A stretch of DNA of 64,000 bases from assembly GCA_963765835.1 (NCBI GenBank), contig CAVXYF010000020.1:20731-84730 (forward strand), given 5' to 3'. Position numbers and translations under genes: made by a program. Positions 4,083 through 21,225 of this stretch are shown in pieces (position 1 is the first letter of the stretch; each line of letters begins with the position of its first letter). The stretch is from an uncultured Acidobacteriota bacterium. Lineage in GTDB: Bacteria; Acidobacteriota; Thermoanaerobaculia; UBA5066; Gp7-AA6. Below the pieces are notes generated by a model. It did not search any database and was not told where the DNA came from. It saw nothing but the letters and a program-made list of their open reading frames with translations.

Positions 4083-5065
4083 CGGATTTTACCGAACTGG
4101 TCGATCTTGCCTCCGAACGCCTGGGCGGAGCGGCAGTCTCCGCGAACGACGAGTTCTTCGCCCCCAAGGAGAACCTCGTCAAGACGGCGCCTCCGATCTT
4201 CCGGGAAGACGAGTACACCGACCGGGGCAAGTGGATGGACGGCTGGGAGACGCGGCGCCGGCGCGAGCCCGGCCACGACTGGTGCGTGGTGCGCCTCGGC
4301 CTGCCGGGCGTGATCCGCGGAATCTGCGTCGACACGGCCTTCTTCCGCGGCAACTTCCCGGAGGCCTGCTCGCTCGAGGCGGGTGATGGTCCGGACGGTC
4401 CCTGGGTCGAGGTCCTGCCGAAGTCGGCGCTGAAGGGCGATGCCGAAAACCTCTTCCCGGTCGAGAGCGGGCGCCGGACCACGCACGTGAAGCTCCACAT
4501 CTATCCGGATGGCGGCGTGGCCCGGCTGCGCGTCTACGGGCTCGTATCTCCGGAGAAGGCGTCCGTGCCGCACGCCGCGGAAATCGACCTCGCCGGGCTG
4601 GAGAACGGCGGACTCGTCGTCGCCGCGAGCGACATGTTCTTCGGCGCGAGGCACAACCTGATCCTGCCGGGCCCTCCGCTCGGCATGCACGACGGGTGGG
4701 AGACGCGGCGGCGCCGCGGGCCCGGGCACGACTGGGCTCTCCTGCGTCTGGGTCACCGCGGCGCGATCCGGCGGATCGAGGTCGACACCCGGTACTTCAA
4801 GGGGAACTCTCCGGGGAGCTGCTCGCTCGAAATCCTGGAGCAGGGTGACCCTCTCTCTCCGCAGGGGAAGTGGCGCGAAGTCCTGCCGCAGGTGCCGCTC
4901 CGGCCGGACTCCGTGCACCGGTTCGAGGCCGAGGTCCTGCCGTCGCCGGCCGCCACGCACGCGCGTTTCCACATCTACCCGGACGGGGGCGTCGCGAGGC
5001 TCCGGCTCATCGGGGAAGTCGCGGGGACAGGTCCCTTCGGGGGCCTGCACCCGCCACCGGATTAA
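4079..5065 (+). CDS. alc: Allantoicase
   Basis: Two repeats of the motif set DGWETRRRR / GHDW / VDT..F.GN / IYPDGGVARLR. The last ~15 aa are encoded by a palindromic repeat copy. Confidence 0.95.
   Translation: MTDFTELVDLASERLGGAAVSANDEFFAPKENLVKTAPPIFREDEYTDRGKWMDGWETRRRREPGHDWCVVRLGLPGVIRGICVDTAFFRGNFPEACSLEAGDGPDGPWVEVLPKSALKGDAENLFPVESGRRTTHVKLHIYPDGGVARLRVYGLVSPEKASVPHAAEIDLAGLENGGLVVAASDMFFGARHNLILPGPPLGMHDGWETRRRRGPGHDWALLRLGHRGAIRRIEVDTRYFKGNSPGSCSLEILEQGDPLSPQGKWREVLPQVPLRPDSVHRFEAEVLPSPAATHARFHIYPDGGVARLRLIGEVAGTGPFGGLHPPPD
5017..5058 (+). repeat. Dispersed palindromic repeat copy forming the 3' end of alc
   Basis: AGTCGCGGGGACAGGTCCCTTCGGGGGCCTGCACCCGCCACC; its flanks match those at 5299, 12452, 54383 and 55473. 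Confidence 0.88.
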
Positions 5066-5082
5066 ACGGTCGAGGCGTCGCC

Positions 5083-5712
5083 CTGACGGTCGCCCTCGAG
5101 GAGTTGAACGCGCTTCCCCCGACGGAGGCGCAGCGGCGATTCCTCTCCTGCTGTGGTTCGTCGGAGTGGGCGCGGCGTATGACGGAGGCGCGTCCCTTTG
5201 GAAGTGTCGAGTCGCTCGCCGAGACGGCCGACCGGACCTGGCGCGGGCTGTCGAGGCAGGACTGGCTGGAGGCGTTCCAGGCGCATCCCCCCATAGGAGT
5301 CGCGGGGACAGGTTTTAACCTGCACCCGCCGCCGAACTCAGCGGGGACAGGTTTTAACCTGCACCCGCCGCCGAACTCAGCGGGGACAGGTTTTAACCTG
5401 CACCCGCCTCCGAACTCAGCGAACTCGAACCTTGATCGGTCCGTTCACTGGGCCCGGCAGGAACAGTCCGGCACGGCGGGCGCGGACGCGGAGACGCGGG
5501 CGGGGCTCGCGCTCTTGAACCGCGAGTACGCCGAGCGGTTCGGCCACGTCTTCCTCGTCTGCGCGACCGGGAGGAGCGCGCCGGAGATGCTTGCTCTGGG
5601 GCGGCAGAGGCTCCGGAACGACCCGGCGACGGAGCTCGCGACCGCCGCGGAAGAGCAGCGTAAGATCACTCGGCTTCGGCTGGAGAAACTTCTTTCGCCG
5701 ATCGAGCGATGA
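5083..5712 (+). CDS. uraD: OHCU decarboxylase (start uncertain: CTG 5083 or TTG 5104), with an in-frame 3 x 13-aa insertion
   Basis: LNALP...FLSCCGSSEWARRM..ARPF, AFQAHPPIG, RQEQSG, Y.ERFGHVFLVCATG, EEQRKITRLRL; lies between alc and uraH. Confidence 0.9.
   Translation: MTVALEELNALPPTEAQRRFLSCCGSSEWARRMTEARPFGSVESLAETADRTWRGLSRQDWLEAFQAHPPIGVAGTGFNLHPPPNSAGTGFNLHPPPNSAGTGFNLHPPPNSANSNLDRSVHWARQEQSGTAGADAETRAGLALLNREYAERFGHVFLVCATGRSAPEMLALGRQRLRNDPATELATAAEEQRKITRLRLEKLLSPIER
5299..5418 (+). repeat. 39-bp tandem array x3 of the dispersed repeat inside uraD (encodes AGTGFNLHPPPNS x3)
   Basis: Units 5302-5340, 5341-5379 and 5380-5418 read GCGGGGACAGGTTTTAACCTGCACCCGCCGCCGAACTCA, with one mismatch in the third unit. 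Confidence 0.95.
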
Positions 5713-6044
5713 GCGCCATCACCACCCACGTCCTCGACACGTCGCGCGGGCAACCGGCCGCGGGCGTCTCGGTCACCCTCGAGTTCCTGGCCGAAGACGG
5801 GTGGAAGTGGCTCGGGGGCGGCCGGACTGACGACGACGGGCGAGTCCGGGACCTCTTCGGAGGCGATGTCCTGTTCGGGAAGTATCGCCTGACCTTCGAC
5901 ACGGGCACTTACTTCGAGTCATCCGGTACGGAAGGTTTTTTTCCGCTGGTGCAGCTCGTTTTCACGGTCCACGATCCCGAGCGGGACTATCACGTGCCCC
6001 TGCTCCTGTCGCCCTACGGCTACTCGACCTATCGCGGTTCGTGA
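5709..6044 (+). CDS. uraH: 5-hydroxyisourate hydrolase (transthyretin-like)
   Basis: N-terminal ITTHVLDTSRG and C-terminal YHVPLLLSPYGYSTYRGS. Confidence 0.96.
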   Translation: MSAITTHVLDTSRGQPAAGVSVTLEFLAEDGWKWLGGGRTDDDGRVRDLFGGDVLFGKYRLTFDTGTYFESSGTEGFFPLVQLVFTVHDPERDYHVPLLLSPYGYSTYRGS

Positions 6045-6859
6045 TGCTGGGTCGGAACAGCTACGGAAAGTCGGGAATCCGGCTCGTTCGGGTGGACCGC
6101 GCTTCCCCGGACCACGCCGTGTCCGACCTCACGGTTGCGGTCCGGCTGGAGGGCGACTTCGAGGCGGTGCACGTCGCCGGCGACAACTCCGGTCTCGTCG
6201 CGACCGACACGATGAAGAACACGGTCTACGCGCATGCGAAGGAGCTCTCCGGCCGCGAGATCGAGGACTTCGCGCTGTCGCTCTCGGACCACTTCCTCCG
6301 GGAGAACCCGTCGCTGTCGGGGTCCGAGGTGTCGATCGAGGAGCGGATCTGGGATCGCTTGAGCAGCTCCTCGTTCGAAGGGTCGCGCGAGGAACGCCGA
6401 ACCGCGCGCGCCGTCCGGTCCCGCGAAACCGCCATCCTGTGGTCGGGGCTCCGGGACCTCCTCATCCTGAAGACCGCGCACTCCGGGTTTTCGGGGTTCG
6501 CGCGGGACCGCTACACGACGCTGCCGGAGACCCGCGACCGCCTGCTGGCGACCTCGCTCACGGCGGAGTGGACGCACGCTTCCGCGGCCGGACCTTTCGT
6601 CGGGCGATGGAAGGCGGTCCGCAGCACGCTGCTCGACACCTTCGCCGGCCACGACAGCGCGTCGGTCCAGCACACGCTGTATGCGATGGGGGAGGCGGCG
6701 CTCGCGGCGCACCCCGGCATCCGGGAGATCCGTCTCACGATGCCGAACCGCCACCACCTGCTCGTGGACCTGTCCCCCTTCGGTCTGAAAAACGAGAACG
6801 AAATCTTCGTGGCCACCGCGGAGCCCTACGGACTCATCGAGGCGACGGTGACGCGGTAG
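6041..6859 (+). CDS. pucL: Cofactor-independent urate oxidase (uricase)
   Basis: NSYGKSGIRL, ATDTMKNTVY, LKTAHSGFSGF.RD.YTTLPET.DR, SVQHTLY, MPNRHH, EPYGLIEATV. Confidence 0.94.
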   Translation: MMLGRNSYGKSGIRLVRVDRASPDHAVSDLTVAVRLEGDFEAVHVAGDNSGLVATDTMKNTVYAHAKELSGREIEDFALSLSDHFLRENPSLSGSEVSIEERIWDRLSSSSFEGSREERRTARAVRSRETAILWSGLRDLLILKTAHSGFSGFARDRYTTLPETRDRLLATSLTAEWTHASAAGPFVGRWKAVRSTLLDTFAGHDSASVQHTLYAMGEAALAAHPGIREIRLTMPNRHHLLVDLSPFGLKNENEIFVATAEPYGLIEATVTR

Positions 6860-6885
6860 ATCGATACACCGGAAAGGAGACACCC

Positions 6886-7188
6886 ATGGTCAAGTATCAG
6901 ACGTCGTGCGCCAAGGGACAGCAGGGAGAGATTCTCGTCAACGGCCTGTACGTCAGCGGTACGGAACCCGCGTGGATCGAGCGCGTCATCCTCGAGGAGC
7001 TGGACGCTGCGGGAAACGCCATCGGGTCCTGGACGTTCCACGTCGACCGATATGTGGATCCCGTCGTGCAGAGCTCGCAGATGCTCGTTTCCAAGATGCC
7101 GTCCGGTAGCAACGTGAAGGGCGCGCGGGCCACCGCGTACTGGATCGAGATCGACAAGGTGTCGAAGTCCGCGATCTTGAACCTCTAG
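6886..7188 (+). CDS. Hypothetical 100-aa protein
   Basis: Strong SD (AAAGGAG) upstream of ATG 6886, 26 bp after the uricase stop. No family recognised. Confidence 0.65.
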   Translation: MVKYQTSCAKGQQGEILVNGLYVSGTEPAWIERVILEELDAAGNAIGSWTFHVDRYVDPVVQSSQMLVSKMPSGSNVKGARATAYWIEIDKVSKSAILNL

Positions 7189-7227: not shown

Positions 7228-8574
7228 TTAGAGCTTCCGGCTCTTCAGGATTCTCACGAACGAGCGTCCTCGCAGCTCGTCTGAGGCGAGCCCGCTCATC
7301 TCGACGGCTTCCTCCTCCGTGATTGCCCCGCAGCCCCAGGCGCGGAGGAAGTGGTTCAACAGGCCCTGCCCGGTCGCCGCGTCGTCGAAGACTTCACCGA
7401 CGAGAGTCGCCTGGCCCGCCTTCTGGACAAAGTTCTTCAGCCTCGCCGACGCTGCATCGATCCCCTCCAGGAAGAACGCGTAGAGCGCGGCGTACCGTGT
7501 CGGGAGCTGCGCGGGGTGCAGGTCCCACCCCTGGTAGAAGCCGTGCGCGAGCGAGTGCCGGACGTGGTCGTAGTGGAGCTTCCATGCCGCGTGGACCGCC
7601 CGGCGGTTCGCCTCGGCCTCCGCAGCGCCGAGCGGGCGTCCCTCCGAAGCGCGGTGCGGCGGCACCGGTAACACGTTCGTCGAGCCGTCCGAGATCCAGA
7701 CGCCGGTGCCGGCGAGCGCGACCTGGAGAACGCTCTTGGCGAAGTCGCACGCGGGATGAGTCATCGTCTGGTACGCCGCGGTGATGTTCAGGGACGCCGT
7801 GTAGTCGTACGTGCCGAAGTGCGCGGCGACGCAGCGGCGCCGCGACGCGCCCACCAGGCGCTGGATCGACGCCGTCCCCTCATCGTCGAGGATCGCCTGC
7901 GGCGTCTCGACCATGATCTCGAACGGAAGGGCGCGTTCGGGCAGGCGGAGGTGGCGCTCGAGCTGGTCGAGCAGCTGCGCCAGCGCGGAGACCTGTTCCG
8001 CCACCGTGACCTTTGGAAGGGTGACGACGAAGTTGTCCGGCAGGCGGCCGCCGGTTTCCCGGGTCAGCGCGGTCAGGAAGAGGTCGAGCGTGCGCACCGC
8101 GCGCGCCTTCAGCTCTTCGGTGAAAGGCTTGATGCGGATCCCGAGGTAGGGCGGCAGCGTTTCGGCCGCGAGACCTCTCGCCACCTCCACCGCGGCGGAC
8201 TCCGCGTGGCCGTCCTCTTCCGCGTCGGGGCGGTTGCCGTAACCGTCCTCGAAGTCGATGCGGAAGTCCTCGACCGGCTCGCGGGAGAGCTTCCGCGCGA
8301 CACGGTCGTAAATCGTCTCGGCGAGCATCCCGGGCAGGTCGAGCGCCCGGGCGAAGTCCCCCGGCTCCGGGGCGTACTCCTCGAGGGAGCGCCGCGCGAA
8401 GGCGCCCAGCCGCGGCGCGGTGTCGGAGCGGAACACCTGGGCGCCGCCGTACACGGTGTGCACGGGCTGCCGCCGATCGGAGTCGCCCGGGAAGCGCTTC
8501 GCGAAGTCGCGGTTCGCCTCCGCGATCTGCGCCAATACCATCTGAAATTCTTCGGGCGCGAGGGTCTGCTTCAC
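7228..8574 (-). CDS. HpcH/CitE aldolase-citrate lyase superfamily protein (DUF6986-like)
   Basis: GTG start overlaps the upstream stop. Motifs VHTVYGGA, RIDFEDGYG, TLPKV, EIMVETPQ, HFGTYDY, SDGSTN, QGWDLHPAQL. Confidence 0.8.
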   Translation of the reverse strand: MKQTLAPEEFQMVLAQIAEANRDFAKRFPGDSDRRQPVHTVYGGAQVFRSDTAPRLGAFARRSLEEYAPEPGDFARALDLPGMLAETIYDRVARKLSREPVEDFRIDFEDGYGNRPDAEEDGHAESAAVEVARGLAAETLPPYLGIRIKPFTEELKARAVRTLDLFLTALTRETGGRLPDNFVVTLPKVTVAEQVSALAQLLDQLERHLRLPERALPFEIMVETPQAILDDEGTASIQRLVGASRRRCVAAHFGTYDYTASLNITAAYQTMTHPACDFAKSVLQVALAGTGVWISDGSTNVLPVPPHRASEGRPLGAAEAEANRRAVHAAWKLHYDHVRHSLAHGFYQGWDLHPAQLPTRYAALYAFFLEGIDAASARLKNFVQKAGQATLVGEVFDDAATGQGLLNHFLRAWGCGAITEEEAVEMSGLASDELRGRSFVRILKSRKL

Positions 8575-9395
8575 GGAGCCGTTTCCCTCCAGAACTGCTC
8601 GAGGAGATTTCCGGAGACGCGCCGGCGATACTCCGCCGTCGAGCGCAGGTCGTCGATCGGATTGATCTCGGCGTCCAGCGCGCGGCGGGCGTCGGCGATG
8701 CCGGCGCCGGAGGCGAGCACGGCCTCCGTCTCCGGCAGGCGCACGACCGTGGGCGCCACGCTTCCGAGCGACACGCGGGGGCGGTCGGACCGGACTGCCG
8801 CCATGACCACCTTGGAAATCGCCTGAGCCGCCCGCGTCCCGACCTTGCGGAACCACTGGCGCCCCTCGACCCGCGGGATCTCGACCGCCGTGATGAGCTC
8901 GTCGGGGCGGAGGACGCTCTGGCGATAGCCCGTGTAGAAGGAGTTGAAGGAAACGCGCCGGTCGCCGCCCGCGCTCGCGAGGATCAGGTTCGCCTCGGCG
9001 ACCGCGAGGACAGGCAGGCTGTCTCCGGCGGGGGAGCCGTTGGCGACGTTGCCGCCGAGCGTGCCGCGGTTCTGGATCTGGACTCCGCCGATCTCTCCCG
9101 CGGCCGCGGCGAGAATGGGCAGCCGGCGCCGCACGAGGGCCGAACGCATGATTTCCGTGTAGGTGGCCAGCGCGCCGATCGAGAGGGCGCCTTCCGAGAT
9201 GCCGATCCGGCGCAGCTCGGCGAGCGGCCAGAGGTCCAGGAACCTTTTGGCCGGCAGTGTCCCGAAGTTCAGTCCAACGTAGACGTCGGTGCAGCCGGCC
9301 AGCGGAACGAGGGGACCCTCGTCGCGCAACATCTCGAGCGCCTCTCGCACGGTGCGGGGCTGCAGGAGCTCGAGCCGCGAGACGGCGGTCCTCAT
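8571..9395 (-). CDS. Xanthine dehydrogenase family FAD-binding subunit
   Basis: LAGCTDV, LSIGALATY, IGGVQIQNRGTLGGNVANGSPAGD, RAAQAISKV, PIDDLRSTAEYRR. Confidence 0.9.
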   Translation of the reverse strand: MRTAVSRLELLQPRTVREALEMLRDEGPLVPLAGCTDVYVGLNFGTLPAKRFLDLWPLAELRRIGISEGALSIGALATYTEIMRSALVRRRLPILAAAAGEIGGVQIQNRGTLGGNVANGSPAGDSLPVLAVAEANLILASAGGDRRVSFNSFYTGYRQSVLRPDELITAVEIPRVEGRQWFRKVGTRAAQAISKVVMAAVRSDRPRVSLGSVAPTVVRLPETEAVLASGAGIADARRALDAEINPIDDLRSTAEYRRRVSGNLLEQFWRETAP

Positions 9396-9880
9396 GAAGA
9401 CGCCTCCGCGCGAACTCGGGGGATCCAGCGGGGGACGGCGTTGCGGTACTCCTCGTACTCGTCGCCGAACGCGCCGGCGAGGTGGGGTTCCTCGTAGAGG
9501 ATCACGAAGAGGTGAAAGACGAGCCACGCCACGGCGGCGAAGATCCCGATCGATCTCGACTCGAAGAAGAGCGCCTCTCCGACGAGCGTGGTCACGACCC
9601 CGACGTACATCGGGTTCCTCACGTAGCGGTAGAGGCCGACCGAGACCAGCTTTCGGGGAGGATCGACCGGAGCGAGCGTCCCGCGCCCCTTGCGGGCAAA
9701 GTCCACGATGCACGCGAGCAGCACGGCGGCCCCGGCCGCCATCAAGGGAACCCCGGCCCATCGCCAGGTTCCCAGGTGGGCGCTTCCGGCATCCCGGGCC
9801 GCGAGCATCCGGGGAATCCACACCACGGCCGTCCCCGGCATAAGAACCGTGAAAAACAGGGCCCGCAGGAAGAGGATCAT
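9392..9880 (-). CDS. Isoprenylcysteine carboxyl methyltransferase / PEMT-family membrane protein
   Basis: Hydrophobic helices with GRGTLAPVDPP.KLV..GLYRYVRNPMYVG and YEEPHL...FG.EYEEY...VPRWIP. Confidence 0.85.
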   Translation of the reverse strand: MILFLRALFFTVLMPGTAVVWIPRMLAARDAGSAHLGTWRWAGVPLMAAGAAVLLACIVDFARKGRGTLAPVDPPRKLVSVGLYRYVRNPMYVGVVTTLVGEALFFESRSIGIFAAVAWLVFHLFVILYEEPHLAGAFGDEYEEYRNAVPRWIPRVRAEASS

Positions 9881-10329
9881 CGCTTTTCGCGGCGCCCGCG
9901 ACGGGTCGCCGCCTGGTCCACCGCCCGGTAGATCGCGGTGTACCCGGTGCACCGGCAGATGTTCCCGGCGAGACCCCGCCGGACGTCGTCGAGGGTCGCA
10001 CCTCGCGGCAACGCCGCAGCCGCAAGAATCATCCCCGGCGTACAGATACCGCACTGCGCTCCGCCTTCGACGACGAAGGCCTCCTGCAGCGGGTGACGGC
10101 CGCCGAGTCCCTCGATCGTGGTCACGGTGCAGCCGCGCACCTGCGCGAACGGGACGAGGCACGAGTTGACCGGCATTCCGTCGACGAGGACCGTGCAGGC
10201 GCCGCACTCTCCCTCGCCGCACCCCTCCTTGGTCCCGGTCAGGCCGCACTCCTCGCGCAGGACGTCCAGCAGCCGCTTCATCGGGGCGGCCTTCACGTCG
10301 CGCGCCTTTCCGTTGAGCGCGAACCTCAC
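9877..10329 (-). CDS. Xanthine dehydrogenase family 2x[2Fe-2S] subunit
   Basis: GTKEGCGEGECGACTV, NSC, QCGICTPG and NICRCTGY; GTG start overlaps the upstream stop. Confidence 0.92.
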   Translation of the reverse strand: MRFALNGKARDVKAAPMKRLLDVLREECGLTGTKEGCGEGECGACTVLVDGMPVNSCLVPFAQVRGCTVTTIEGLGGRHPLQEAFVVEGGAQCGICTPGMILAAAALPRGATLDDVRRGLAGNICRCTGYTAIYRAVDQAATRRGRREKR

Positions 10330-12437
10330 GCGGCGGACCGGCCGGACGACGCGGCCATCACCCGCTCCGGCGTCGCCGGAATCTCGCGGACGTCGATGCC
10401 CAGGCTGCGGATCGCGTTGACGACCGCGGGAGCGGGTCCGTCGATCGGCATCTCGCCGACGCCCTTCGCGCCGAACGGCCCGTGCTCGTAGGGGTTCTCC
10501 AGGATCGCGACGTCGATCGGCGGTGTGTCGAGCGTCGTCGGCACCAGGTAGTTCGTGAGCTGCGCGTTGGCCATGCGGCCGTCCCGCATCGCGACCTCTT
10601 CGAGCAGCGCGTAGCCGAGGCCCTGCGCGGTTCCTCCCTCGATCTGGCCGGCGGCCAGCGTCGGGTGGATGGCCTTGCCGATCTCCTGGACCGCCGTGAT
10701 CCGCGTGGGCCGGATCTCGAACGTGACGGGGTCCCTCTCGACCTCGACGACGTCGCAACCCCAGCCGTACGCGCCGTACGCGTCGCCGCGGTAGGTGTCG
10801 TCGTCCCAGTAGAGGCCGTCGGGCCCGGTGTACTCCTTCGTGACGACGAGCGGCCCGTTCGCCGCGAGGTAATCGCGCGGTGACATTGTTCCGAGCTTCT
10901 GCCGGATCTCGGCCGCGCACCGTTCCAGGATCCGCCCCACGACCATGCACGTCCGCGAGGCGACCGTGGGTCCGCTGTCCGGAACGCGCGCCGTGTCCGC
11001 GGCCTCGACCTCCACGTTCTCGTAGGGGATGCCGAGCGCGTCCGCGACGATCTGCGCGTGCATGGTGCGCGTCCCCTGGCCGATCTCGGTGGAGGCGACG
11101 AGGATGCGCGCGCCGGTGGGCGTGAGCTCCAGGGAGGCCTTCGAGGCGAGCTTGACCTCCCCGCCCCCCGTGAACCCCGAGCCGTGGAAGAAGAGAGCGA
11201 GACCGATGCCCCGGTCCGTGCCGCGCCACGCCTTGCGCTTCGCGCGAAAGTCGCTCCGCTTCACCGCCTCGCGCAGCACCTTCAAGGCGCTGCAGTCCTT
11301 CTCGAGCTTCTGTCCGGTCGCGGTGGTGTCGCCCGGCCGGAAGGCGTTCGTCTCGCGCAGCCGCACCGGATCCATCTCGAGAGCCTCGGCGATCCGCTCC
11401 ATCTGCACTTCCGCTGCGAACTGCGTCTGCGGCGCGCCGAAGCCTCGGAAGGCGCCGTTCGGCGGCGTGTTGGTCCGGACGACGCGGCCGTGGATGCGGA
11501 CGTTGTCGCACCGATACGGCCCGGTCGCGTGGATCACGCCGCGCGAGAGGACGACCGGCGACAACGTCATGTAGGCCCCGCCGTCTAAGAGCACGTCGAT
11601 CTCGATCGCGGTCAGCCGTCCGTCCCGCGCGACGCCGGTCGAGTGTCGGATGACGCCCGGATGCCGCTTCGTCGTCGCAACCATGTCCTCGACGCGGTCG
11701 TACACGAGCTTGACCGGACGGCCCGACTTGATCGCGAGGATCGCGGCGTGCCCCGCGATCATGGAGGGGTACTCCTCCTTGCCGCCGAATCCGCCGCCGG
11801 TCTCGGTCTGAACGACGCGGACCTTCTCCTCCGGCAGGTCAAGAAGGACCCGGAGGGCCCGGTGGACGTAGTACGGACACTGGAGCGAGCCGTAAACCGT
11901 GACCCCGCCGTTCTCGGGCACCGCGATGACGCCGTTCGTCTCGATGTAGAGCTGCTCCTGCAGCCCGACGCGGTATTCCCCCTCGACGATACGGTCCGCC
12001 TCGGCGAGGCCGCGGGCGAGGTCCCCCTTCTCGATCACGATTTCCTTGAAGCAGAGGTCCGATTGCGCGGGGTCGTAGATCGGTTCGGACGGAACGCAGT
12101 CGATGCGGATGCCGGCTTCCGCCTCGATCAGCTTTTCCCGGTCCTCGTGCGCGATCAGCAGGATCGGCTCGGCGAAGTGTCGGATCTCGCGCTCGGCGAG
12201 ACAGGGCTGGTCGAGCTCGATCAGTGCGATCGTGTTCCGCCCCGGAATGTCGCGGCAGTCGGCGACCGTGAAGCCTTTGCGGTCGAATCCCAGATGGATC
12301 CCTGTGATCGCGCCGCGAGGAATCGTCGAGCGGATCGTCCTCGCGTGGAGCATGCCCGGAAAGGAGATGTCGTCGACGTACAGCGCCTGCCCCGTGACCT
12401 TCGCGCGCCCCTCCTTGCGGGGGACGTTCCGGCCCAC
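10326..12437 (-). CDS. Xanthine dehydrogenase family molybdopterin-binding subunit
   Basis: GGGFGGKEE, AFRGFGAPQ, EIGQG, GPTVASR, GQIEGG and GAKGVGE carry the Glu/Arg/Glu positions typical of xanthine-oxidising enzymes. An alternative start at 12509 would include a repeat copy. Confidence 0.9.
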   Translation of the reverse strand: MGRNVPRKEGRAKVTGQALYVDDISFPGMLHARTIRSTIPRGAITGIHLGFDRKGFTVADCRDIPGRNTIALIELDQPCLAEREIRHFAEPILLIAHEDREKLIEAEAGIRIDCVPSEPIYDPAQSDLCFKEIVIEKGDLARGLAEADRIVEGEYRVGLQEQLYIETNGVIAVPENGGVTVYGSLQCPYYVHRALRVLLDLPEEKVRVVQTETGGGFGGKEEYPSMIAGHAAILAIKSGRPVKLVYDRVEDMVATTKRHPGVIRHSTGVARDGRLTAIEIDVLLDGGAYMTLSPVVLSRGVIHATGPYRCDNVRIHGRVVRTNTPPNGAFRGFGAPQTQFAAEVQMERIAEALEMDPVRLRETNAFRPGDTTATGQKLEKDCSALKVLREAVKRSDFRAKRKAWRGTDRGIGLALFFHGSGFTGGGEVKLASKASLELTPTGARILVASTEIGQGTRTMHAQIVADALGIPYENVEVEAADTARVPDSGPTVASRTCMVVGRILERCAAEIRQKLGTMSPRDYLAANGPLVVTKEYTGPDGLYWDDDTYRGDAYGAYGWGCDVVEVERDPVTFEIRPTRITAVQEIGKAIHPTLAAGQIEGGTAQGLGYALLEEVAMRDGRMANAQLTNYLVPTTLDTPPIDVAILENPYEHGPFGAKGVGEMPIDGPAPAVVNAIRSLGIDVREIPATPERVMAASSGRSAA

Positions 12438-12451
12438 GGCTCCGGGAGGTC

Positions 12452-12493
12452 GGCGGCGGGTGCAGGCCCCCAAAGGGACCTGTCCCCGCGACT
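12452..12493 (-). repeat. Dispersed palindromic repeat copy between preA and the Mo subunit
   Basis: Reverse complement reads AGTCGCGGGGACAGGTCCCTTTGGGGGCCTGCACCCGCCGCC, near-identical to 5017-5058. Confidence 0.88.
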
Positions 12494-12539
12494 TTCGAGA
12501 GGCGCCCACGGTTGGGCGCGGATGCTACCGCACCGGGCG

Positions 12540-13682
12540 CTATTTCGGCGGTGCGCCCTTCAGTGTCCCGCTTCCGGCCGCGGCGGGCTCCTCGGTGTCA
12601 TATCCGCCGTGGTAGTGGGCCTCGTCCGGGCGCTTGATCTTGGAGTGCGAGACGATCCGGTTGCGCCGGATGCCCCGGAAGTCGTCCAGCTTCTGCCAGC
12701 CCCGGTGCGCGTTCTTCTCCAGGAACTCCTCCATCCCGCGGAGGAGGTTCTTGATGACCGTGGGTCCGACCGCGTGATCGAGCATGGCCGCGGTGCAGAC
12801 CTGGACAGTTCCGCACCCGAGCAGAAAGTAGTTCAGGGCGTGCGGGAACTCGGAGATGCCGCCGATCCCGGAGAACTCCTTGTCCTCGAACGCGCCCGTC
12901 ATCTGCGCCATCTTCGCGAGGGAGAGCGGAAGGATGGCGGGGCCGCCGAGGCCGCCGGTCGACACCAGGCCCTCCACGTTCATCTCGAACTCGAGAGTCT
13001 CCGGATCGATCACGGGCAGCGACGTGAACGTGTTGGAGGAGGAGATGGCGTCCGCGCCGCCGAGGAAGGCCCCCCGCGCCTCGACGACGATGTCGGTCGT
13101 GGACGGCGTGAGCTTCGCCCACACCGGGATCGTCGCCACTTCCTTCACCACCTGCGTGACGACCGAGATCAGCTCGTCGTCCTTTCCGATGTTCGAGCCC
13201 ATGTCCGGCCGGTCCATGTGGGGGCAGGAGAGGTTCAGCTCGAGCGCGTCGGCGCCGTCGTCCTGGCAGGCTTTCGCGAGGGTCTGCCAGTGGCGCATCT
13301 CCTCGTCGGAGCCGGAGCCCGCCATGATCGAAGCAATGAGGATCTTTTCGGGGTGCGCCTTCTTGATCCGCGCGAGGCGGCCGATCCACCAGTCGAGCGG
13401 CTTGTCCGAGATGAGCTCCCAGTTCCACGAGGAGTGGAGGGCCGCGCCCGGCTTCTTCTTCATCGAGATGTGGCCCGACGTCGGATCCGTGCGCATGAAG
13501 TTGGTCTTGGGACCCTTCACGTTGACGACGGGGTGCACGCCGATCGTCTTGGTGACCACGCCGGCCCAGCCCGCCTCGAACGCCCGGAGGATGTTCGCCT
13601 CCGACTCCGTGGGGGGCGCCGACGAGAGAAGGAAGGGATTCTCGAACCGGATCCCGGTGAACGTGACGGATAAGTCGGACAT
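12540..13682 (-). CDS. preA: Dihydropyrimidine dehydrogenase FMN subunit lacking the C-terminal ferredoxin domain
   Basis: ENPFLLSSAPPT, WAGVVTKT, NWELISD, ELNLSCPH, VWAKLTP, GGLGG, FSGIGG, VQVCTA. No CxxCxxC in the C-terminus. Confidence 0.85.
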   Translation of the reverse strand: MSDLSVTFTGIRFENPFLLSSAPPTESEANILRAFEAGWAGVVTKTIGVHPVVNVKGPKTNFMRTDPTSGHISMKKKPGAALHSSWNWELISDKPLDWWIGRLARIKKAHPEKILIASIMAGSGSDEEMRHWQTLAKACQDDGADALELNLSCPHMDRPDMGSNIGKDDELISVVTQVVKEVATIPVWAKLTPSTTDIVVEARGAFLGGADAISSSNTFTSLPVIDPETLEFEMNVEGLVSTGGLGGPAILPLSLAKMAQMTGAFEDKEFSGIGGISEFPHALNYFLLGCGTVQVCTAAMLDHAVGPTVIKNLLRGMEEFLEKNAHRGWQKLDDFRGIRRNRIVSHSKIKRPDEAHYHGGYDTEEPAAAGSGTLKGAPPK

Positions 13683-13684
13683 GG

Positions 13685-15022
13685 CTAGCTCGCTCCCGCA
13701 GCTTCGAAAGATTCGTGAAGAATCGACAGCGCTTCCGAGATTTCAGAAGCGTTGACCGTCAGAGCCGGCGCGATGCGGAATGCGTTCCCCTCGAGGCCGC
13801 CCTTGCCGATCAGGAGACCGCGCCTTCGAGCCTCTTCGAAGATCTTGTTGGTCAGCTCCTTCGCGGGCGTGCGGTCGCGAGCCGTCTCGTCGACCACGAG
13901 CTCCACCGCCTGCATGAGCCCCATGCCCCGGACGTCCCCCAGGTTCTTTGGAAACCTCCGCTTCAGCTCCTCGAGGCCGGCGCGCAGCAGATCGCCCATC
14001 GTCTGAGCATTGGCGGGCAGGCCCTCTTCCTCGATGAACTGGACGGTCGCGTTCCCCGCCGCGCACGAGATCGGGTTTCCGCCGAAGGTCGAGATCGTGA
14101 GCGACTTCAGCGACGCCGCGATCTCGGGCGTGCAGACCGTGACGCCGAGCGGGAGACCGTTCGCCACGCCCTTGGCCATCGTCATGATCTCGGGCTCGAC
14201 TCCCCAGTGCTCGATGCCCCACATCTTCGTCCCGGTGCGGCCGAAGCCGGTCTGGACCTCGTCGCAGATGAAGACTCCGCCGTACTTGCGCACGATCGCG
14301 ACCGCGGCCTCGAAGTACTCGGGCGGCGGCGTGATGAAACCCCCGACTCCCTGGATGGGCTCGGCGATGAACGCCGAGATACGGCCGGTGGTGGTCGTGC
14401 GGATGATGTCCTCGATGTCGGTCGCGCAGGCGATCCCGCACGAGGGGTACGTCAGGTGCATCGGGCAGCGGTAGCAGTACGGCGTCGGTGCGTGCTTGAT
14501 GCCGGCGATCTTGGTCGAGAGCGGCCGCCACGTGGAGTGGGCGGTCAACGATTGCGCGAGCGTCGAACGGCCCGAGTATCCGTGGCGGAGCGCGATGACT
14601 TCCGACCGCCCCGTGAAGAGCTCCGCCATCATCACGGCGGTTTCGTCCGCCTCCGTGCCCGAGGCCGTGAAGTACATCTGGCGCAACTTGCCCGGCGCGA
14701 TCCGCGCCAGCCGCTCCGCGAGCTCGACTACCGGAAGCGTGGGATAGAGCGTCGAGATGTGGGAGAGCCGGTCGACCTGCGCCTTGATCGCGGCGTTGAC
14801 CTTCTCGTTCCCATGCCCGACCGACACCGTCAGGATCCCGCCGAAGAAGTCGAGGTACTCGTTTCCGTCCGCGTCGCGCACCCGGAGCCCCTTCGCGTCC
14901 GTGACGACGATCGGCTCCTGGTAATACTGGATCGTGGCCGGGAAGAGGTACTCCTTGTGCTTCTCCCGGACGCTCTTCGTGAGGTCGGACGTGGGGCGGG
15001 TTTCGCGGCTGACAGTGCTCAT
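13685..15022 (-). CDS. Class III aminotransferase (AGXT2/PYD4-like; probable beta-alanine aminotransferase)
   Basis: YLDFFGGI.TVSVGH, SGTEADE, YSG, EPIQGVGG, DEVQTGFGRTG, MAKGVANG, STFGGNP; pathway context. Confidence 0.85.
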   Translation of the reverse strand: MSTVSRETRPTSDLTKSVREKHKEYLFPATIQYYQEPIVVTDAKGLRVRDADGNEYLDFFGGILTVSVGHGNEKVNAAIKAQVDRLSHISTLYPTLPVVELAERLARIAPGKLRQMYFTASGTEADETAVMMAELFTGRSEVIALRHGYSGRSTLAQSLTAHSTWRPLSTKIAGIKHAPTPYCYRCPMHLTYPSCGIACATDIEDIIRTTTTGRISAFIAEPIQGVGGFITPPPEYFEAAVAIVRKYGGVFICDEVQTGFGRTGTKMWGIEHWGVEPEIMTMAKGVANGLPLGVTVCTPEIAASLKSLTISTFGGNPISCAAGNATVQFIEEEGLPANAQTMGDLLRAGLEELKRRFPKNLGDVRGMGLMQAVELVVDETARDRTPAKELTNKIFEEARRRGLLIGKGGLEGNAFRIAPALTVNASEISEALSILHESFEAAGAS

Positions 15023-16431
15023 GACCTGGGACTCCTCTTCAGGAATGAGCCGGCGCCGGCTCTTCCGGTGAACTTTCCGTTCTCGACGACCACTTTGCCG
15101 CGGGAGAGGACCGTGTCGGACACTCCCGTGACCTCCCGCCCCTCGTAAGGGTTGTAGTCCACCTTCATGTGGAGCGTCTTCGCCGACAGCGTCTGTTTCC
15201 GGTTGGGGTCGAAGACGACGAGGTCCGCGTCGGAGCCCGGTGCGATCGTGCCCTTTCGGGGGAAGAGGCCGAAGATCTTCGCGGGCGACGTGGACGTCAG
15301 CTCCACGAACCGGTTCCACGAGATCTTTCCGGTCCGGACGCCTCCGTCGTGGACGAGGCTCATCCGCGTCTCGATCCCCGGCGCGCCGTTGGGGATCTTC
15401 GAGAAGTCGTCGCGGCCCAGCTCCTTCTGCTCCTTCATGCAGAACGGGCAGTGGTCCGTCGAGATGGCCTGCAGGTCGTTGGACGCGAGGCCCCGCCAGA
15501 GGCGGTCCTGCGTCTCCTTCGGCCGAAGCGGCGGGCTCATGACGTACTTCGCGCCCTCGAAGCCGGGCTCCTCGTAGTTGTCGTAGGAGAGGAAGAGGTA
15601 CTGCGGGCAGGTCTCGGCGTAGGCGGGAAGGCCGCGATCGCGCGCCTCCGTCACCATCTCGAGGGCCTCCGCCGCGGAGAGGTGGACGATGTAGATCGGA
15701 ACGCCGGCGATCTCGGCGAGAGCGATCGCCCGGTGCGTCGCCTCGGCTTCGGCGCGCGCCGGCCGGGTGAGGGCGTGGTACTTCGGAGCCGTATTCCCCT
15801 CGGCGAGCGCGCGCTGTACCAGCACGTCGATGACGCCGCCGTTCTCGGCGTGCATGCAGATCGTGCCGCCGTTCTCCCGGGTTCGCAGGAGAGCGCGGAA
15901 GATCGACGCGTCGTCCAGCATGAAGACGCCGGGGTAGGCCATGAAGAGCTTGAAAGACGTCACGCCCTCGCGGACGAGCTCGTCCATCTCGCGTTCGACC
16001 GAGTCGTTCAGGTCCGTGACGATCATGTGGAAGCCGTAGTCGATCGCGGCCTTGCCGTCGGCCTTGGCCCTCCAGGCGTCGAGCGCGTGCCGGAGCGTCT
16101 GGCCGCGGTACTGGATCGCGAAGTCGACGACCGACGTCGTGCCGCCGTGGGCCGCGGCGATCGTGCCGGACTCGAAGTCGTCCGCGGACGTCGTGCCGCC
16201 GAAGGGCATGTCGAGGTGCGTGTGGACGTCGATGCCCCCCGGGATCACGAACTTGCCGGCGGCGTCGATCGTCCGGTCGAGGGTCTGATCCGCGTGGGTC
16301 TGATCCCCGAAGGGGGTCAGATCCACATTTGGTGCCATCACCGCCGAAATCTTCTCGTCCTCGATGAGGACGTCGCCCCGGTACAAGTCGGTCGCGGTGA
16401 CGACGGTGCCGCCGCGGATCAGGGTCTTCAA
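15019..16431 (-). CDS. hydA: Dihydropyrimidinase
   Basis: GGIDVHTHLDMPFGGT, SFKLFMAY, MHAENG, ETCPQYL, YVMSPPLR, STDHCPF, IPNG.PG.ETR; TTG start overlaps the upstream stop. Confidence 0.94.
   Translation of the reverse strand: MKTLIRGGTVVTATDLYRGDVLIEDEKISAVMAPNVDLTPFGDQTHADQTLDRTIDAAGKFVIPGGIDVHTHLDMPFGGTTSADDFESGTIAAAHGGTTSVVDFAIQYRGQTLRHALDAWRAKADGKAAIDYGFHMIVTDLNDSVEREMDELVREGVTSFKLFMAYPGVFMLDDASIFRALLRTRENGGTICMHAENGGVIDVLVQRALAEGNTAPKYHALTRPARAEAEATHRAIALAEIAGVPIYIVHLSAAEALEMVTEARDRGLPAYAETCPQYLFLSYDNYEEPGFEGAKYVMSPPLRPKETQDRLWRGLASNDLQAISTDHCPFCMKEQKELGRDDFSKIPNGAPGIETRMSLVHDGGVRTGKISWNRFVELTSTSPAKIFGLFPRKGTIAPGSDADLVVFDPNRKQTLSAKTLHMKVDYNPYEGREVTGVSDTVLSRGKVVVENGKFTGRAGAGSFLKRSPRS
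16281..16325 (-). repeat. Palindromic repeat variant inserted in frame near the hydA N-terminus
   Basis: Minus strand reads GATCTGACCCCCTTCGGGGATCAGACCCACGCGGATCAGACCC (DLTPFGDQTHADQT), sharing the core of the 62327 array. Confidence 0.75.
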
Positions 16432-17300
16432 GTGGCGATCTCGGCCATCGGCTGGTAGGTCTCGGGACGGCGGTCGCGGAAGAACTGCCAGACCCGCCGG
16501 ACCTCCTCGATCATGTCGAGGTCCATCTCCGCCGTGATGAGCTCGTCCTTCTCCTCGGAGGCGACGGCGAGGAAGTTGCCGCGCGGGTCCACGAAGTAGG
16601 ACGAACCGTAAAAGCGCCCCAGGTTCCACGGCGACTCAACGCCCACGCGATTGCTGCACGCCATGAAGTAGCCGTTGGCCACGGCGTGCGCCGGCTGCTC
16701 CAGCTTCCACAGGTACTGCGAGAGCCCCGCGACCGTAGCCGAAGGGTTGAAGACGATCTCCGCGCCGTTCAAACCGAGAAGGCGGGCGCCCTCCGGGAAG
16801 TGGCGGTCGTAGCAGATGTACACGCCGACCTTCGCGTAGCGCGTCTCGAAGACGGGGTAGCCGAGGTTACCCGGCTTGAAGAAGTACTTCTCCCAGAAGC
16901 CGGACGTATGGGGAATGTGGTTCTTGCGGTACTTCCCGAGATAGGAGCCGTCGGCGTCGTAGACCGCGGCGGTGTTGTAGTACACGCCGGCCTGCTCGCG
17001 CTCGTAGACCGGGACGACCATCGCCATCTGGTACTTCTTCGCGTACTGCGCCATCCGCTCGGTCGTGGGCCCGGGCACCGGTTCCGCCATGTCGTACCAG
17101 TGCGGATCCTGGGACGGGCAGAAGTAGGGACCGTTGAAGATCTCCTGCAGGCCGAGAATCTGGACGCCGTTCCGGCCGGCTTCTTCGATCATGTGGATGT
17201 GCCGGGAGATCGCGTCCTCCCGCACCTGCTCGATCGGGACGGACGGGTCCGAGAGCGGCGTCGCGCACTGGATCAGGCCGCCGGTGACTTTACGGGGCAT
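16428..17300 (-). CDS. Beta-ureidopropionase (nitrilase/C-N hydrolase family)
   Basis: Catalytic triad motifs LQEIFNGPYFC, YRKNHIP and ICYDRHFPEG; lies between mmsA and hydA. Confidence 0.9.
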   Translation of the reverse strand: MPRKVTGGLIQCATPLSDPSVPIEQVREDAISRHIHMIEEAGRNGVQILGLQEIFNGPYFCPSQDPHWYDMAEPVPGPTTERMAQYAKKYQMAMVVPVYEREQAGVYYNTAAVYDADGSYLGKYRKNHIPHTSGFWEKYFFKPGNLGYPVFETRYAKVGVYICYDRHFPEGARLLGLNGAEIVFNPSATVAGLSQYLWKLEQPAHAVANGYFMACSNRVGVESPWNLGRFYGSSYFVDPRGNFLAVASEEKDELITAEMDLDMIEEVRRVWQFFRDRRPETYQPMAEIAT

Positions 17301-17396: not shown

Positions 17397-18905
17397 TCAG
17401 AACCATCGGGAAATGACTACCTTCTTATCGGTATAGAACTCATAAGCATCGCGTCCGTGCACCTTCAGGTCGCCGAAGAAGCTGTCCTTGGCGCCGCCGA
17501 ACGGAAAGTACGCCATCGGAGCGGCGACGCCGATGTTCACGCCCACCATCGATGCCGACGCCATCCGCGCGAACTCGCGCGCGGCCTTGCCGCTCGTGGT
17601 GAAGATGGACGTCGCGTTCGCGTTGGGATGCGCGTGCATGACCTCGATCGCCTCCTCCAGGCTCTTGACCGGGGAGATCGACGCCACGGGGCCGAAGATC
17701 TCCTCGTGGCCGATCGTCATCGAGGGAGAAACCTCGTCGAAGAGCGTGGGGCCGAGAAAGAACCCTTTCTCGCTGCCCTCGACCGAGAGCTCGCGACCGT
17801 CCACGACGAGGCGGGCCCCCTCCTGCACGCCCCTGTCGATGTAGGAGAGCACGCGCTCCCGGTGCCGCCCGCTGATGACCGGCCCCATCTCGACGTCCTC
17901 CGCCATTCCGTCGCCGACCCGGAGGGCCTTCGTGGACGCGGCCATGCGGTCCCGCGCCTCGCCGTGCGCCTCTCCAACCGGAACGAGGATGCTTCCGGCG
18001 AGACAGCGCTCGCCGGCGCAGCCGTAGAACGACTCCGTGATGACGTCGATCGAGCGATCCCAGTCAGCGTCCGGCATGACGACGATGAAGTTCTTGGCTC
18101 CGCCGAGCGCCTGCACGCGTTTTCCGGCGTGGGTCGCGCGCCGCCAGACCGCCTTCGCGACCGGCGTCGAGCCGACGAAGGAGACCGCACGGATCTCAGG
18201 GTGGTCGCAGATCGCCTCGACCACCTCGCGGCCGCCGTTGACCAGGTTCACCACGCCCGGCGGGAGGCCGCACTTCTCCAGCAGGCGGAAGATCAGCCGC
18301 TGGGAGAGCGGAACCTGCTCGGACGGCTTGACGATGATGGTGTTCCCGGTGCCGACCGCGAACGGCAAAAACCAGAGAGGAACCATGGCCGGGAAGTTGA
18401 ACGGCGCGATCGCGGCACAGACGCCCACGGGTTGACGGATCACCTGGCAGTCGATGCCGGAGGAGATGTTCTCGAGGCCGTAACCCATCATGAGCGACGG
18501 GGAGCCGCACGCCACCTCGACGCACTCGATTCCGCGGCGCACGCTGCCCCGGGATTCGCCGATGGTTTTTCCGTGCTCGGTCGTGACCGTGCGCGCGAGC
18601 TCCTCGAAGTTTTCCTCGAGGAGCTGCCGGAACGAAAACAAAGCTCGGGCCCGCACGACCGCGGGCGTGTCGCGCCACGCCGGAAACGCCTTCTTCGCGG
18701 CGAGAACCGCAGCGTCCAGGTCTTCACCGGTCGAGAGCGGCGTCTTCGCGATGATCTCGCCGCGAGCGGGGTTGTACACGTCGAGGAACTCGCGGGCGCG
18801 AGAGTCGACCCACCGGCCCCCGATGAAGTTCTGGAGGACTTCGGCGTCTCTCGAGGAGCCGGCCCTGGCGCTCGTCGCGTCCGTTGCGACCGCCGAATCC
18901 GTCAT
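17397..18905 (-). CDS. mmsA: CoA-acylating (methyl)malonate-semialdehyde dehydrogenase
   Basis: PFNFPAMVPLW, KPSEQVP, SFVGST, QALGGAKNF, GCAGERCLA, EEIFGPV, FPFGGAKDSFFGD. Confidence 0.93.
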   Translation of the reverse strand: MTDSAVATDATSARAGSSRDAEVLQNFIGGRWVDSRAREFLDVYNPARGEIIAKTPLSTGEDLDAAVLAAKKAFPAWRDTPAVVRARALFSFRQLLEENFEELARTVTTEHGKTIGESRGSVRRGIECVEVACGSPSLMMGYGLENISSGIDCQVIRQPVGVCAAIAPFNFPAMVPLWFLPFAVGTGNTIIVKPSEQVPLSQRLIFRLLEKCGLPPGVVNLVNGGREVVEAICDHPEIRAVSFVGSTPVAKAVWRRATHAGKRVQALGGAKNFIVVMPDADWDRSIDVITESFYGCAGERCLAGSILVPVGEAHGEARDRMAASTKALRVGDGMAEDVEMGPVISGRHRERVLSYIDRGVQEGARLVVDGRELSVEGSEKGFFLGPTLFDEVSPSMTIGHEEIFGPVASISPVKSLEEAIEVMHAHPNANATSIFTTSGKAAREFARMASASMVGVNIGVAAPMAYFPFGGAKDSFFGDLKVHGRDAYEFYTDKKVVISRWF

Positions 18906-20784: not shown

Positions 20785-21225
20785 ATGGACGACCGCGCGC
20801 TGCTCGAGGTCGCGATCCAGGAGGCCCGGCGGGGACTCTCGGAGGGAGGGATCCCGATCGGCGCCGCGCTCTTCGACGTCGAGGGCAACCTCCTCGGGCG
20901 CGGGCACAACCGGCGCATCCAGGAGAACGACCCCTCGGTCCACGGCGAAACCGACGCGTTCCGGAAGGCGGGCCGCCAGCGCGGTTACCGGGACAAAACG
21001 ATGGTGTCAACGCTCGCGCCGTGCTGGTACTGCAGCGGCCTCGTCCGGCAGTTCGGCATCGGCCGCGTGATCGTGGGGGAGTCGATCAACTTCGCCGGCG
21101 GTCTCGACTGGCTCCGGGACAACGGCGTGCAGGTCGTCGACCTCGCCTCGCTCGAGTGCATCGAGATGCTGGGGGAGTGGATCGCCGCACATCCGGATGT
21201 CTGGAATGAGGACATCGGCCGGTAG
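20785..21225 (+). CDS. Cytosine/nucleoside deaminase (yeast Fcy1-like, CDA fold)
   Basis: EGGIPIGAAL, GHNRRIQ, HGETDAFRKAG, TLAPCWYCSG, WNEDIG. Confidence 0.9.
   Translation: MDDRALLEVAIQEARRGLSEGGIPIGAALFDVEGNLLGRGHNRRIQENDPSVHGETDAFRKAGRQRGYRDKTMVSTLAPCWYCSGLVRQFGIGRVIVGESINFAGGLDWLRDNGVQVVDLASLECIEMLGEWIAAHPDVWNEDIGR

Follow-up and report, generated by a model that had tools for sequence, protein, structure and literature searches.

A PYD1-type protein free of iron-sulphur motifs in a reductive pyrimidine operon of Acidobacteriota, and the likely separateness of its electron supply from the neighbouring xanthine dehydrogenase

Introduction

How does a dihydropyrimidine dehydrogenase (DPD) that consists of its flavin mononucleotide (FMN) domain alone obtain its electrons? 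The question is raised by a gene in a 64,000-nucleotide stretch of DNA from an uncultured Acidobacteriota bacterium (contig CAVXYF010000020.1, positions 20,731 to 84,730; hereafter the window). This gene encodes P0001, a PreA-like protein, and is followed by genes of the xanthine dehydrogenase (Xdh) family, which the original prediction, made from the letters of the DNA, had put forward as a speculative electron donor. Our analysis leads us to regard P0001 as a probable stand-alone enzyme, free of iron-sulphur (Fe-S) clusters, that would open the reductive pyrimidine pathway and receive its electrons from a donor encoded outside the cluster, with Xdh probably not wired in.

Three DPD architectures have been characterised, namely the fused animal enzyme, the PreT-PreA pair and the ferredoxin-dependent PydAc, and all three possess Fe-S chains. 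For the plastid enzyme of plants (PYD1 or DHPD; Arabidopsis PYD1, rice OsDHPD) the electron donor is unknown (PMC9930899, PMC3223058). The question of where PYD1 gets its electrons came up in 2009-2011, and a paper of 2023 still had no answer to it; a plastid factor has been postulated by plant workers (PMC3223058, PMC9930899). The bacterial PydA variants were defined by Wang et al. in a survey that required a 4Fe-4S domain, which places Fe-S-free forms outside it by design (PMC7332683), and our full-text searches of the literature turned up no description of a bacterial Fe-S-free PydA.

The proteins described here show that bacteria have the same problem enzyme as plants, in compact pyrimidine operons and in genomes without PreT- or PyrK-type partners. 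Since they carry no transit peptide, they are simple material for a donor search and for structure determination. New in this work are the link to plant PYD1 in phylogenetic trees, a second acidobacterial lineage that is the closest bacterial relative of PYD1 found, the exclusion of PyrK as a general partner, and two conserved tail motifs.

P0001 is an FMN barrel without a ferredoxin domain

The protein and the two parts of it on which the argument turns are located as follows.

12540-13682, minus strand: Fe-S-free PreA/PYD1-type dihydropyrimidine dehydrogenase catalytic protein P0001 (380 residues, ATG start)
13218-13235, minus strand: active-site loop NLSCPH, residues 150-155, with the putative catalytic Cys153, which corresponds to Cys671 of pig DPD in the alignment with that enzyme
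12543-12710, minus strand: Cys-free C-terminal tail, residues 325-380, standing where PreA has its 2x[4Fe-4S] domain and carrying a clade-specific motif (aligned over 12 orthologs)

The only Pfam domain of P0001 is the DHO_dh barrel. Against NF006183, the NCBIfam model for PreA, the NAD-dependent DPD subunit, it scores 302.8 bits and thus does not reach the cut-off of 335; for comparison, a true acidobacterial PreA reaches 674.5 bits. The alignment covers profile positions 1-330 of 422 only, from which it follows that the ferredoxin part with its two [4Fe-4S] motifs is missing. P0001 has four cysteines (139, 153, 290 and 296), none of them in the 84 residues beyond position 296, and its sequence contains no CxxCxxCxxxC motif, of which Fe-S-bearing relatives show two. 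The original prediction of a 380-residue open reading frame (ORF) lacking a C-terminal Fe-S motif is therefore borne out, with the addition that the frame lies on the minus strand.

The closest solved structure is the FMN domain of pig DPD (residues 531-838, E-value 3.6e-46). The alignment to this enzyme shows conservation of the FMN lysine motifs, of the catalytic Ser-Cys loop and of the three asparagines that bind the pyrimidine; the Ser and Thr residues with which DPD binds the pyrimidine are kept as well. Over 36 Fe-S-free and Fe-S-bearing relatives, residues N150, S152, C153 and P154 of the active-site loop are invariant, and so are K45, N87, E89, K190 and N217 elsewhere in the barrel sequence.

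An AlphaFold2 model of P0001 built on these 36 relatives has a mean predicted local distance difference test (pLDDT) score of 90.2. By fold it matches the FMN domain of pig DPD best, with dihydroorotate dehydrogenases of class 1B and class 1A coming next. The tail is modelled as ordered, with good confidence, to about residue 360, and residues 363-380 as disordered. In the alignment of 12 orthologs it bears the motif I(K/R)RP-x4-YHGG(Y/H), followed by EGYA.

Orthologs and a second Fe-S-free lineage

P0001 is not an isolated case. Thousands of metagenome proteins of 370-380 residues match it, with 77-95% identity among the matches listed, and those that are named carry the label 'PreA' and come from Thermoanaerobaculia or Acidobacteriota. 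This amounts to a systematic annotation error, as proteins are named 'NAD-dependent ... subunit PreA' though the NAD-using subunit is absent. Clustering at 50% identity yields essentially one full-length cluster, and the other full-length representatives are at most 44% identical.

Within a sample of 201 Acidobacteriota genomes, a PreA-like gene is present in 22. Proteins at least 71% identical to P0001, which we call the window clade, occur in 11 of the 201, i.e. in 10 of 200 besides the source genome of the window (G000); the count of 11 takes in G000 and the unpublished genome G024, the latter being used in that count only. Three of the 22 genomes have a second short form. Among the other eight, an Fe-S-bearing PreA is present in at least three (G078, G126 and G099, which are those checked).

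The second short form constitutes a Fe-S-free lineage of its own in another acidobacterial family (genomes G034, G064 and G137), with proteins of 338-375 residues that are 37-40% identical to P0001. None of its three genes encodes Fe-S motifs:

L054, positions 9575-10591: second-lineage gene
L055, positions 9388-10488: second-lineage gene
L056, positions 9501-10628: second-lineage gene

These genes lie among genes for dihydropyrimidinase, an NCS1 permease, a CN-hydrolase and an aminotransferase. The second-lineage proteins align over their full length, tail included, to the representative P0170, and a search started from P0170 brought up PYD1 proteins of plants and green algae at 56-63% identity, among them those of Brassica, Oryza, Marchantia, Physcomitrium and Chlorella. 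One member of the PYD1 family from green algae, P0474, carries the source name 'psbA translation factor'; this name hints that algal work may have assigned a different function to a homolog of PYD1. The algal contigs with PYD1 are eukaryotic, so no operon context can be gained from them.

To place these groups relative to each other, we computed trees from 74 rows, rooted on the PyrD of G000 itself, with a C20 model (quick tree) and with LG+G4 (careful tree). The window clade is monophyletic (100/100) and sits on a long stem of its own, and plant and algal PYD1 have the second acidobacterial lineage as their sister group (100/99). The Fe-S-free rows, 28 in number, all fall on one side of a single branch, supported by values of 80/96 for the ultrafast bootstrap (UFBoot) and the Shimodaira-Hasegawa-like approximate likelihood ratio test (SH-aLRT) under LG+G4 and by an SH-aLRT of 79 in the C20 quick tree. 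Both trees thus group P0001 with PYD1, with moderate support, though a position of the window clade outside PYD1 is not rejected (p-AU 0.275). Together with an architecture that is likewise an FMN barrel only, this grouping supports the original description of a plant-like enzyme.

The tails of the two Fe-S-free groups differ. In the PYD1 group, from Acidobacteriota to angiosperms (P0472, P0508, P0440, P0456, L054-L056), the tail reads D-x-(D/E)-W-x-G-D-x-F-V and closes with (M/L)(V/T)SN at the C-terminal end. Its conservation over this range suggests that it is a functional element standing in for the ferredoxin domain. It is not present in the window clade, whose tail is conserved as well but different.

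The operon around P0001

Genes in the window were called on the basis of GC content at third codon positions (GC3), and families were assigned by scans against Pfam and NCBIfam. P0001 is encoded mid-way in a tightly packed, single minus-strand operon that runs from 18905 down to 7228. The genes around it, listed from the start of this operon and followed by further purine- or pyrimidine-related genes of the window, are:

17397-18905, minus strand: CoA-acylating methylmalonate/malonate-semialdehyde dehydrogenase, the first gene of the operon (TIGR01722, 557 bits, cut-off 448.5)
16428-17300, minus strand: CN-hydrolase, candidate beta-ureidopropionase (Pfam CN_hydrolase)
15019-16431, minus strand: dihydropyrimidinase (TIGR02033, 635 bits, cut-off 393)
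13685-15022, minus strand: class III aminotransferase, candidate beta-alanine/beta-aminoisobutyrate transaminase (Pfam Aminotran_3)
10326-12509, minus strand: Xdh-family molybdopterin (Mo) subunit (Pfam MoCoBD_1/2, Ald_Xan_dh_C)
9877-10329, minus strand: Xdh-family [2Fe-2S] subunit (Pfam Fer2, Fer2_2; best NCBIfam models pucE and XdhC, both below cut-off)
9392-9880, minus strand: ICMT/PEMT-like membrane methyltransferase-family gene (NF040696, 52 bits, below cut-off)
8571-9395, minus strand: Xdh-family flavin adenine dinucleotide (FAD) subunit (Pfam FAD_binding_5, CO_deh_flav_C; NCBIfam matches)
7228-8574, minus strand: DUF6986 (HpcH/HpaI-aldolase-like) protein, the last gene of the operon (PF22484, 625 bits)
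2748-7188, plus strand: convergent urate-to-ureidoglycolate operon (Pfam Allantoicase, Uricase, Amidohydro; gene calls)
20785-21225, plus strand: cytidine deaminase (CDA)-fold nucleobase/nucleoside deaminase (Pfam dCMP_cyt_deam_1)

Four genes of reductive pyrimidine degradation precede P0001 on the same strand, which makes the operon longer than first described and places the PreA-like gene in its middle; the stop of the aminotransferase gene lies 2 nucleotides ahead of the P0001 start. Because the operon supplies the remaining genes of the pathway, P0001 is the sole candidate for the first step of an otherwise complete reductive pyrimidine pathway. The CDA-fold deaminase is a possible feeder of uracil or xanthine.

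Downstream, the original prediction had the Xdh subunits as the next genes. This stands for the next three enzyme genes, all of which belong to the Xdh family, but the series is interrupted by the ICMT-like gene between the [2Fe-2S] and FAD genes. The ICMT-like gene has no counterpart in L005, the closest relative of the window, where the [2Fe-2S] and FAD genes abut. The DUF6986 gene holds the same position in L005, which links it with the purine genes and not with PreA.

The long ORF of the Mo subunit opens at GTG 12509, 30 nucleotides after the stop of P0001. As its homology to xanthine oxidoreductases begins only at residue 24, and as GTG 12437 is preceded by GGAG, the true start is probably GTG 12437 and the annotated one 24 codons too early. 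This would leave about 100 nucleotides between the two genes. In this gap we found no terminator-like site, and a scan for promoters and terminators gave nothing above shuffled expectation.

The closest solved relatives of the Mo subunit are rat and bovine xanthine oxidoreductase (E-value 9e-78). In the alignment it keeps the motifs GGFGGKE, FRGFG and VGE as well as the Mo-site glutamine, which we take to hold the equivalents of Gln767, Glu802, Arg880 and Glu1261 of bovine xanthine oxidoreductase. It nevertheless stays below every NCBIfam equivalog cut-off, the best model being pucD (485.8 bits, cut-off 783.65). For this reason, the naming of the downstream trio as a putative xanthine dehydrogenase rests on the Mo-site residues and on the adjacent urate genes. 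The latter form the convergent operon, which comprises an allantoinase-like gene, allantoicase, an OHCU decarboxylase region, HIU hydrolase, uricase and a 100-residue ORF.

Pyrimidine genes accompany the orthologs more regularly than Xdh

We compared 12 loci of the window clade, consisting of the window, two metagenome contigs and nine genomes, and recorded neighbours within 10 kb of the ortholog:

NCS1 nucleobase permease: 9 of 12 loci
Amidohydrolase cluster (dihydropyrimidinase, but also taking in the allantoinase of the window): 10 of 12 loci
Aminotransferase: 8 of 12 loci
Aldehyde dehydrogenase: 8 of 12 loci
CN-hydrolase: 7 of 12 loci
Xdh-family genes: 3 of 12 loci, adjacent in the window and in L005 and 5 kb away in L034

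No Xdh-family gene was found within this distance at the other nine window-clade loci, nor at any of the three second-lineage loci. In L005, where Xdh is adjacent to the ortholog, uricase and HIU hydrolase (a transthyretin-like gene) lie beside Xdh. The link to Xdh is thus confined to a sub-lineage and comes with uricase, and the pyrimidine genes persist without it elsewhere, which is the pattern expected of a purine cluster that lies against a pyrimidine operon.

The search for known electron partners

The original prediction had noted that there is no preT in the window. We extended this observation to the source genome, a 3.63-Mb assembly that is 92.3% complete, by searching for PF14691 (Fer4_20), the Fe-S domain of PreT and GltD. 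There was no match in all of G000, the control genomes being positive, and the domain is also absent from the ortholog carriers G107 and G040, which are 99-100% complete. As a side effect, the lack of PF14691 would mean that G000 also has no small subunit of a GltD-type glutamate synthase, unless it lies in the missing 8%. In genomes that do have PF14691, the strongest matches are located on other contigs and adjoin matches to the PyrK-type domain PF10418. These pairs may be Nfn/GltD-like.

PyrK, which pairs with PyrD in class 1B dihydroorotate dehydrogenase, was considered as a partner in trans. G000 encodes such a PyrK-PyrD pair on contig 10, apart from the window. As a general partner PyrK was rejected, PF10418 being absent from the ortholog carriers G107, G040 and G070.

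A ferredoxin domain split off and encoded elsewhere in G000 was likewise rejected. The ferredoxin part of the PreA profile gave two weak matches, NuoI, whose gene is flanked by those for NuoH and NuoJ/K, and a polyferredoxin of a generic kind, neither of them specific. G000 further encodes, on contig 3, a frame for a small stand-alone [2Fe-2S] ferredoxin of 107 residues, which is a generic donor candidate and again not a specific one.

Gene fusions gave no hint of a partner either. Among the longer proteins searched, there was no fusion of a window-clade protein to a redox gene, and the only fusion partner was the NCS1 permease. The gene calls concerned (P0310, P0311 and P0312) join the FMN protein to the permease over 768-865 residues and form three single-member clusters. 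They may reflect read-through in gene calling and not genuine fusions. In L006, the genes for the FMN protein and the NCS1 permease overlap by 56 nucleotides.

Lastly, no redox gene is conserved beside the orthologs, either at the 12 window-clade loci or at the three of the second lineage, which, with the lack of a PreT-type domain in G000, supports the unknown electron donor of the original prediction. The other neighbours assigned by Pfam include chorismatase-N/RidA proteins, glutamate dehydrogenase, PilZ, GIY-YIG and peptidases, with no redox carrier among them. RidA/L-PSP genes recur beside the Fe-S-free PydA genes (L055:10564-10950, L006:13412-13870, L034:10602-11465, L035:8368-9237); in L034 and L035 the L-PSP domain is joined to an N-terminal domain like that of the chorismatase FkbO. 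Directly upstream of the ortholog in L006 lies a Cys-rich ORF of 108 residues with three CxxC pairs and no Pfam family (L006:9018-9344), which has a homolog in L029, from a sister genome of L006, at a distance of 2.7 kb from the ortholog (L029:13321-13611). We rejected this ORF as a partner, since a search with it as query yielded the homolog in L029 only and nothing in G000 or at the other loci.

Proposed function and alternatives

We infer the substrate, the reaction direction and the donor of P0001 as follows. The FMN TIM barrel would bind uracil or thymine through Asn87, Asn150 and Asn217, as the conserved residues indicate. Reduced FMN would donate a hydride and Cys153 a proton, and the resulting dihydropyrimidine would be passed on to the dihydropyrimidinase, carbamoyl-amidohydrolase, aminotransferase and semialdehyde dehydrogenase of the same operon. 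P0001 would operate without PreT, PyrK or an attached ferredoxin domain, the conserved Cys-free tail filling the place of the Fe-S domain, and its FMN would be re-reduced by a donor encoded outside the cluster. The Xdh genes would provide the entry step of the adjoining purine pathway, co-regulated with P0001 but not linked to it by electron flow.

Two kinds of donor would fit this proposal, and our preference between them is slight. We lean towards a soluble low-potential carrier of general use, for example a ferredoxin or flavodoxin with housekeeping duties, that would dock at the former site of the Fe-S domain. Almost as probable would be the direct use of reduced nicotinamide adenine dinucleotide (phosphate), NAD(P)H, at the flavin, in a ping-pong reaction by analogy to dihydrouridine synthases and class 1A dihydroorotate dehydrogenases.

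Several points weigh against the proposal of a stand-alone enzyme. To our knowledge, catalytic activity has yet to be demonstrated for an Fe-S-free member of the PydA family. That no partner gene lies nearby counts as negative evidence only, and as G000 is 92% complete, its missing DNA might encode a partner if this genome is taken by itself. The deep nodes of the tree are only moderately supported, and moving the window clade outside all the others lowers the log-likelihood by 14.4 units, a difference at which the approximately unbiased test does not reject the tree (p-AU 0.275). The trees thus favour, without establishing it, one ancient loss of the Fe-S domain in common with PYD1. As for the plant enzymes, recombinant rice PYD1 was inactive with both NADH and NADPH (PMC9930899), and Arabidopsis PYD1 retained in the cytosol was reported to be inactive in planta (PMC3223058, data not shown there), which argues against a simple use of NAD(P)H in the plant branch. 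The plant literature on the donor thus leans against NAD(P)H; artificial donors were not tried in these studies (PMC9930899, PMC3223058). At 34-37% identity and with a different tail, the plant data transfer weakly to P0001.

Of the alternatives, the one that survives best, though we consider it unlikely, is a dedicated but unrecognised partner encoded elsewhere, neither PreT, PyrK nor Xdh, which would form a stable complex with P0001 and replace the lost Fe-S chain. The plastid factor postulated for PYD1 (PMC3223058, PMC9930899) would speak for such a partner, the conserved tail, ordered in the model, could serve as a docking site, and the Cys-rich ORF of L006 and L029 points the same way. 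That ORF was not found in G000 or at the other loci, however, and no redox gene or gene of unassigned function recurs beside the 15 loci compared; the ferredoxin-like matches elsewhere in G000 are the NuoI and polyferredoxin described above.

Less probable is that P0001 acts on a different substrate or in the opposite direction, be it as a UacX/YgfK-like purine-ring reductase on the product of Xdh, as a dihydroorotate dehydrogenase or as a dihydrouracil oxidase. A purine-ring reductase would account for the adjacent Xdh-family enzyme, as the two kinds of protein occur together in the reductive uric-acid pathway (PMC12507026). The window, however, encodes the aerobic urate route (uricase, allantoicase), and among the annotated genes of the cluster there is none of the SsnA or YgeW type that belongs to the reductive route. 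The dihydroorotate dehydrogenase role, which the original prediction had itself named as an outcome that would overturn it, draws on the DHO_dh fold and on the class 1B dihydroorotate dehydrogenases being the second-best family matches. It is unlikely nonetheless, as the best such model gives 135 bits where its cut-off asks for 269, every Asn, Ser and Thr with which DPD binds pyrimidines is retained, and the separately encoded PyrK-PyrD pair makes P0001 unnecessary as the biosynthetic enzyme. Dihydrouracil oxidation by single-domain, class-I-like flavoenzymes has been reported for fungi (PMC9585004) and might speak for the reverse direction. Since the conserved neighbours of P0001 consume dihydropyrimidines, oxidising these back would be pointless.

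The coupling to Xdh suggested by the original prediction ranks last by a narrow margin and strikes us as improbable: electrons taken from xanthine at the Mo centre would pass, directly or through the [2Fe-2S] or FAD subunit of Xdh, to the FMN of P0001, purine oxidation thus driving the reduction of uracil without free NAD(P)H, the small Xdh subunit replacing in trans, within the sub-lineage of the window, the electron chain of PreT and the ferredoxin domain, and this is physically conceivable and consistent with genes on the same strand and probably on the same transcript, with the same gene order in L005, with an Xdh-family FAD and Mo pair near the ortholog in L034, with the plant-type ferredoxin fold of the small subunit, and with a pathway in which a PydA-like reductase and an Xdh-family enzyme take part as separate enzymes (PMC12507026), but it is weakened by the 9 of 12 orthologous and 3 of 3 second-lineage loci that keep their pyrimidine genes and have no Xdh within 10 kb, by the urate-pathway genes found beside Xdh wherever it adjoins the ortholog, by a Mo subunit that has the ordinary residues of a xanthine hydroxylase and an FAD exit subunit of its own, and by the absence of FMN protein-Xdh fusions among the longer proteins searched. 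We retain, as the probable reading, that P0001 is a stand-alone dihydropyrimidine-forming enzyme served from outside the cluster.

Comparison with known systems

In its setting, the window resembles the YgfK/UacX-XdhD system, in which a PydA-like flavoenzyme is likewise encoded with a molybdoenzyme of the Xdh family (PMC12507026). YgfK/UacX, however, has Fe-S (and FAD) modules, an oxopurine substrate and enzymes of the SsnA and YgeW type alongside (PMC12507026), whereas P0001 is surrounded by genes of the aerobic urate route and of the classical Pyd route.

Clostridial PydAc, like P0001, has no FAD/NAD(P)H module and sits in Pyd clusters; it does not draw on NAD(P)H by way of PreT, and P0001 would not do so either (PMC7332683). 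It differs in keeping one or two ferredoxin domains fused to the FMN domain and in needing Fe-S clusters for activity, of which P0001 has none (PMC7332683). E. coli PreA-PreT and Brevibacillus PydA1/PydA2 have a homologous FMN domain with identical catalytic residues and the pathway role that is proposed for P0001. Unlike E. coli PreA and Brevibacillus PydA, P0001 lacks the C-terminal 2x[4Fe-4S] domain, and its genome lacks a PreT-type domain.

Class 1A dihydroorotate dehydrogenases and dihydrouridine synthases share with P0001 the single FMN barrel, the catalytic cysteine and the lack of Fe-S clusters. In both enzymes, the two half-reactions take place at the same face of the flavin. They may thus serve as a model for a self-sufficient ping-pong enzyme, although their substrates differ from those proposed for P0001.

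The system most like P0001 in its build is plant PYD1, which also consists of the FMN/pyrimidine barrel only, without an Fe-S domain, an FAD/NADPH module or a partner resembling PreT. Brassica PYD1 covers about positions 3-333 of the 422 in the PreA profile, much as P0001 does. P0001 is 34-37% identical to the plant sequences and differs from PYD1 in its tail, which has I(K/R)RP...YHGG(Y/H) in the window clade and an ending of (M/L)(V/T)SN in PYD1. The closest bacterial relatives of plant PYD1 that we found are not the window clade but the proteins of the second acidobacterial lineage, L054-L056.

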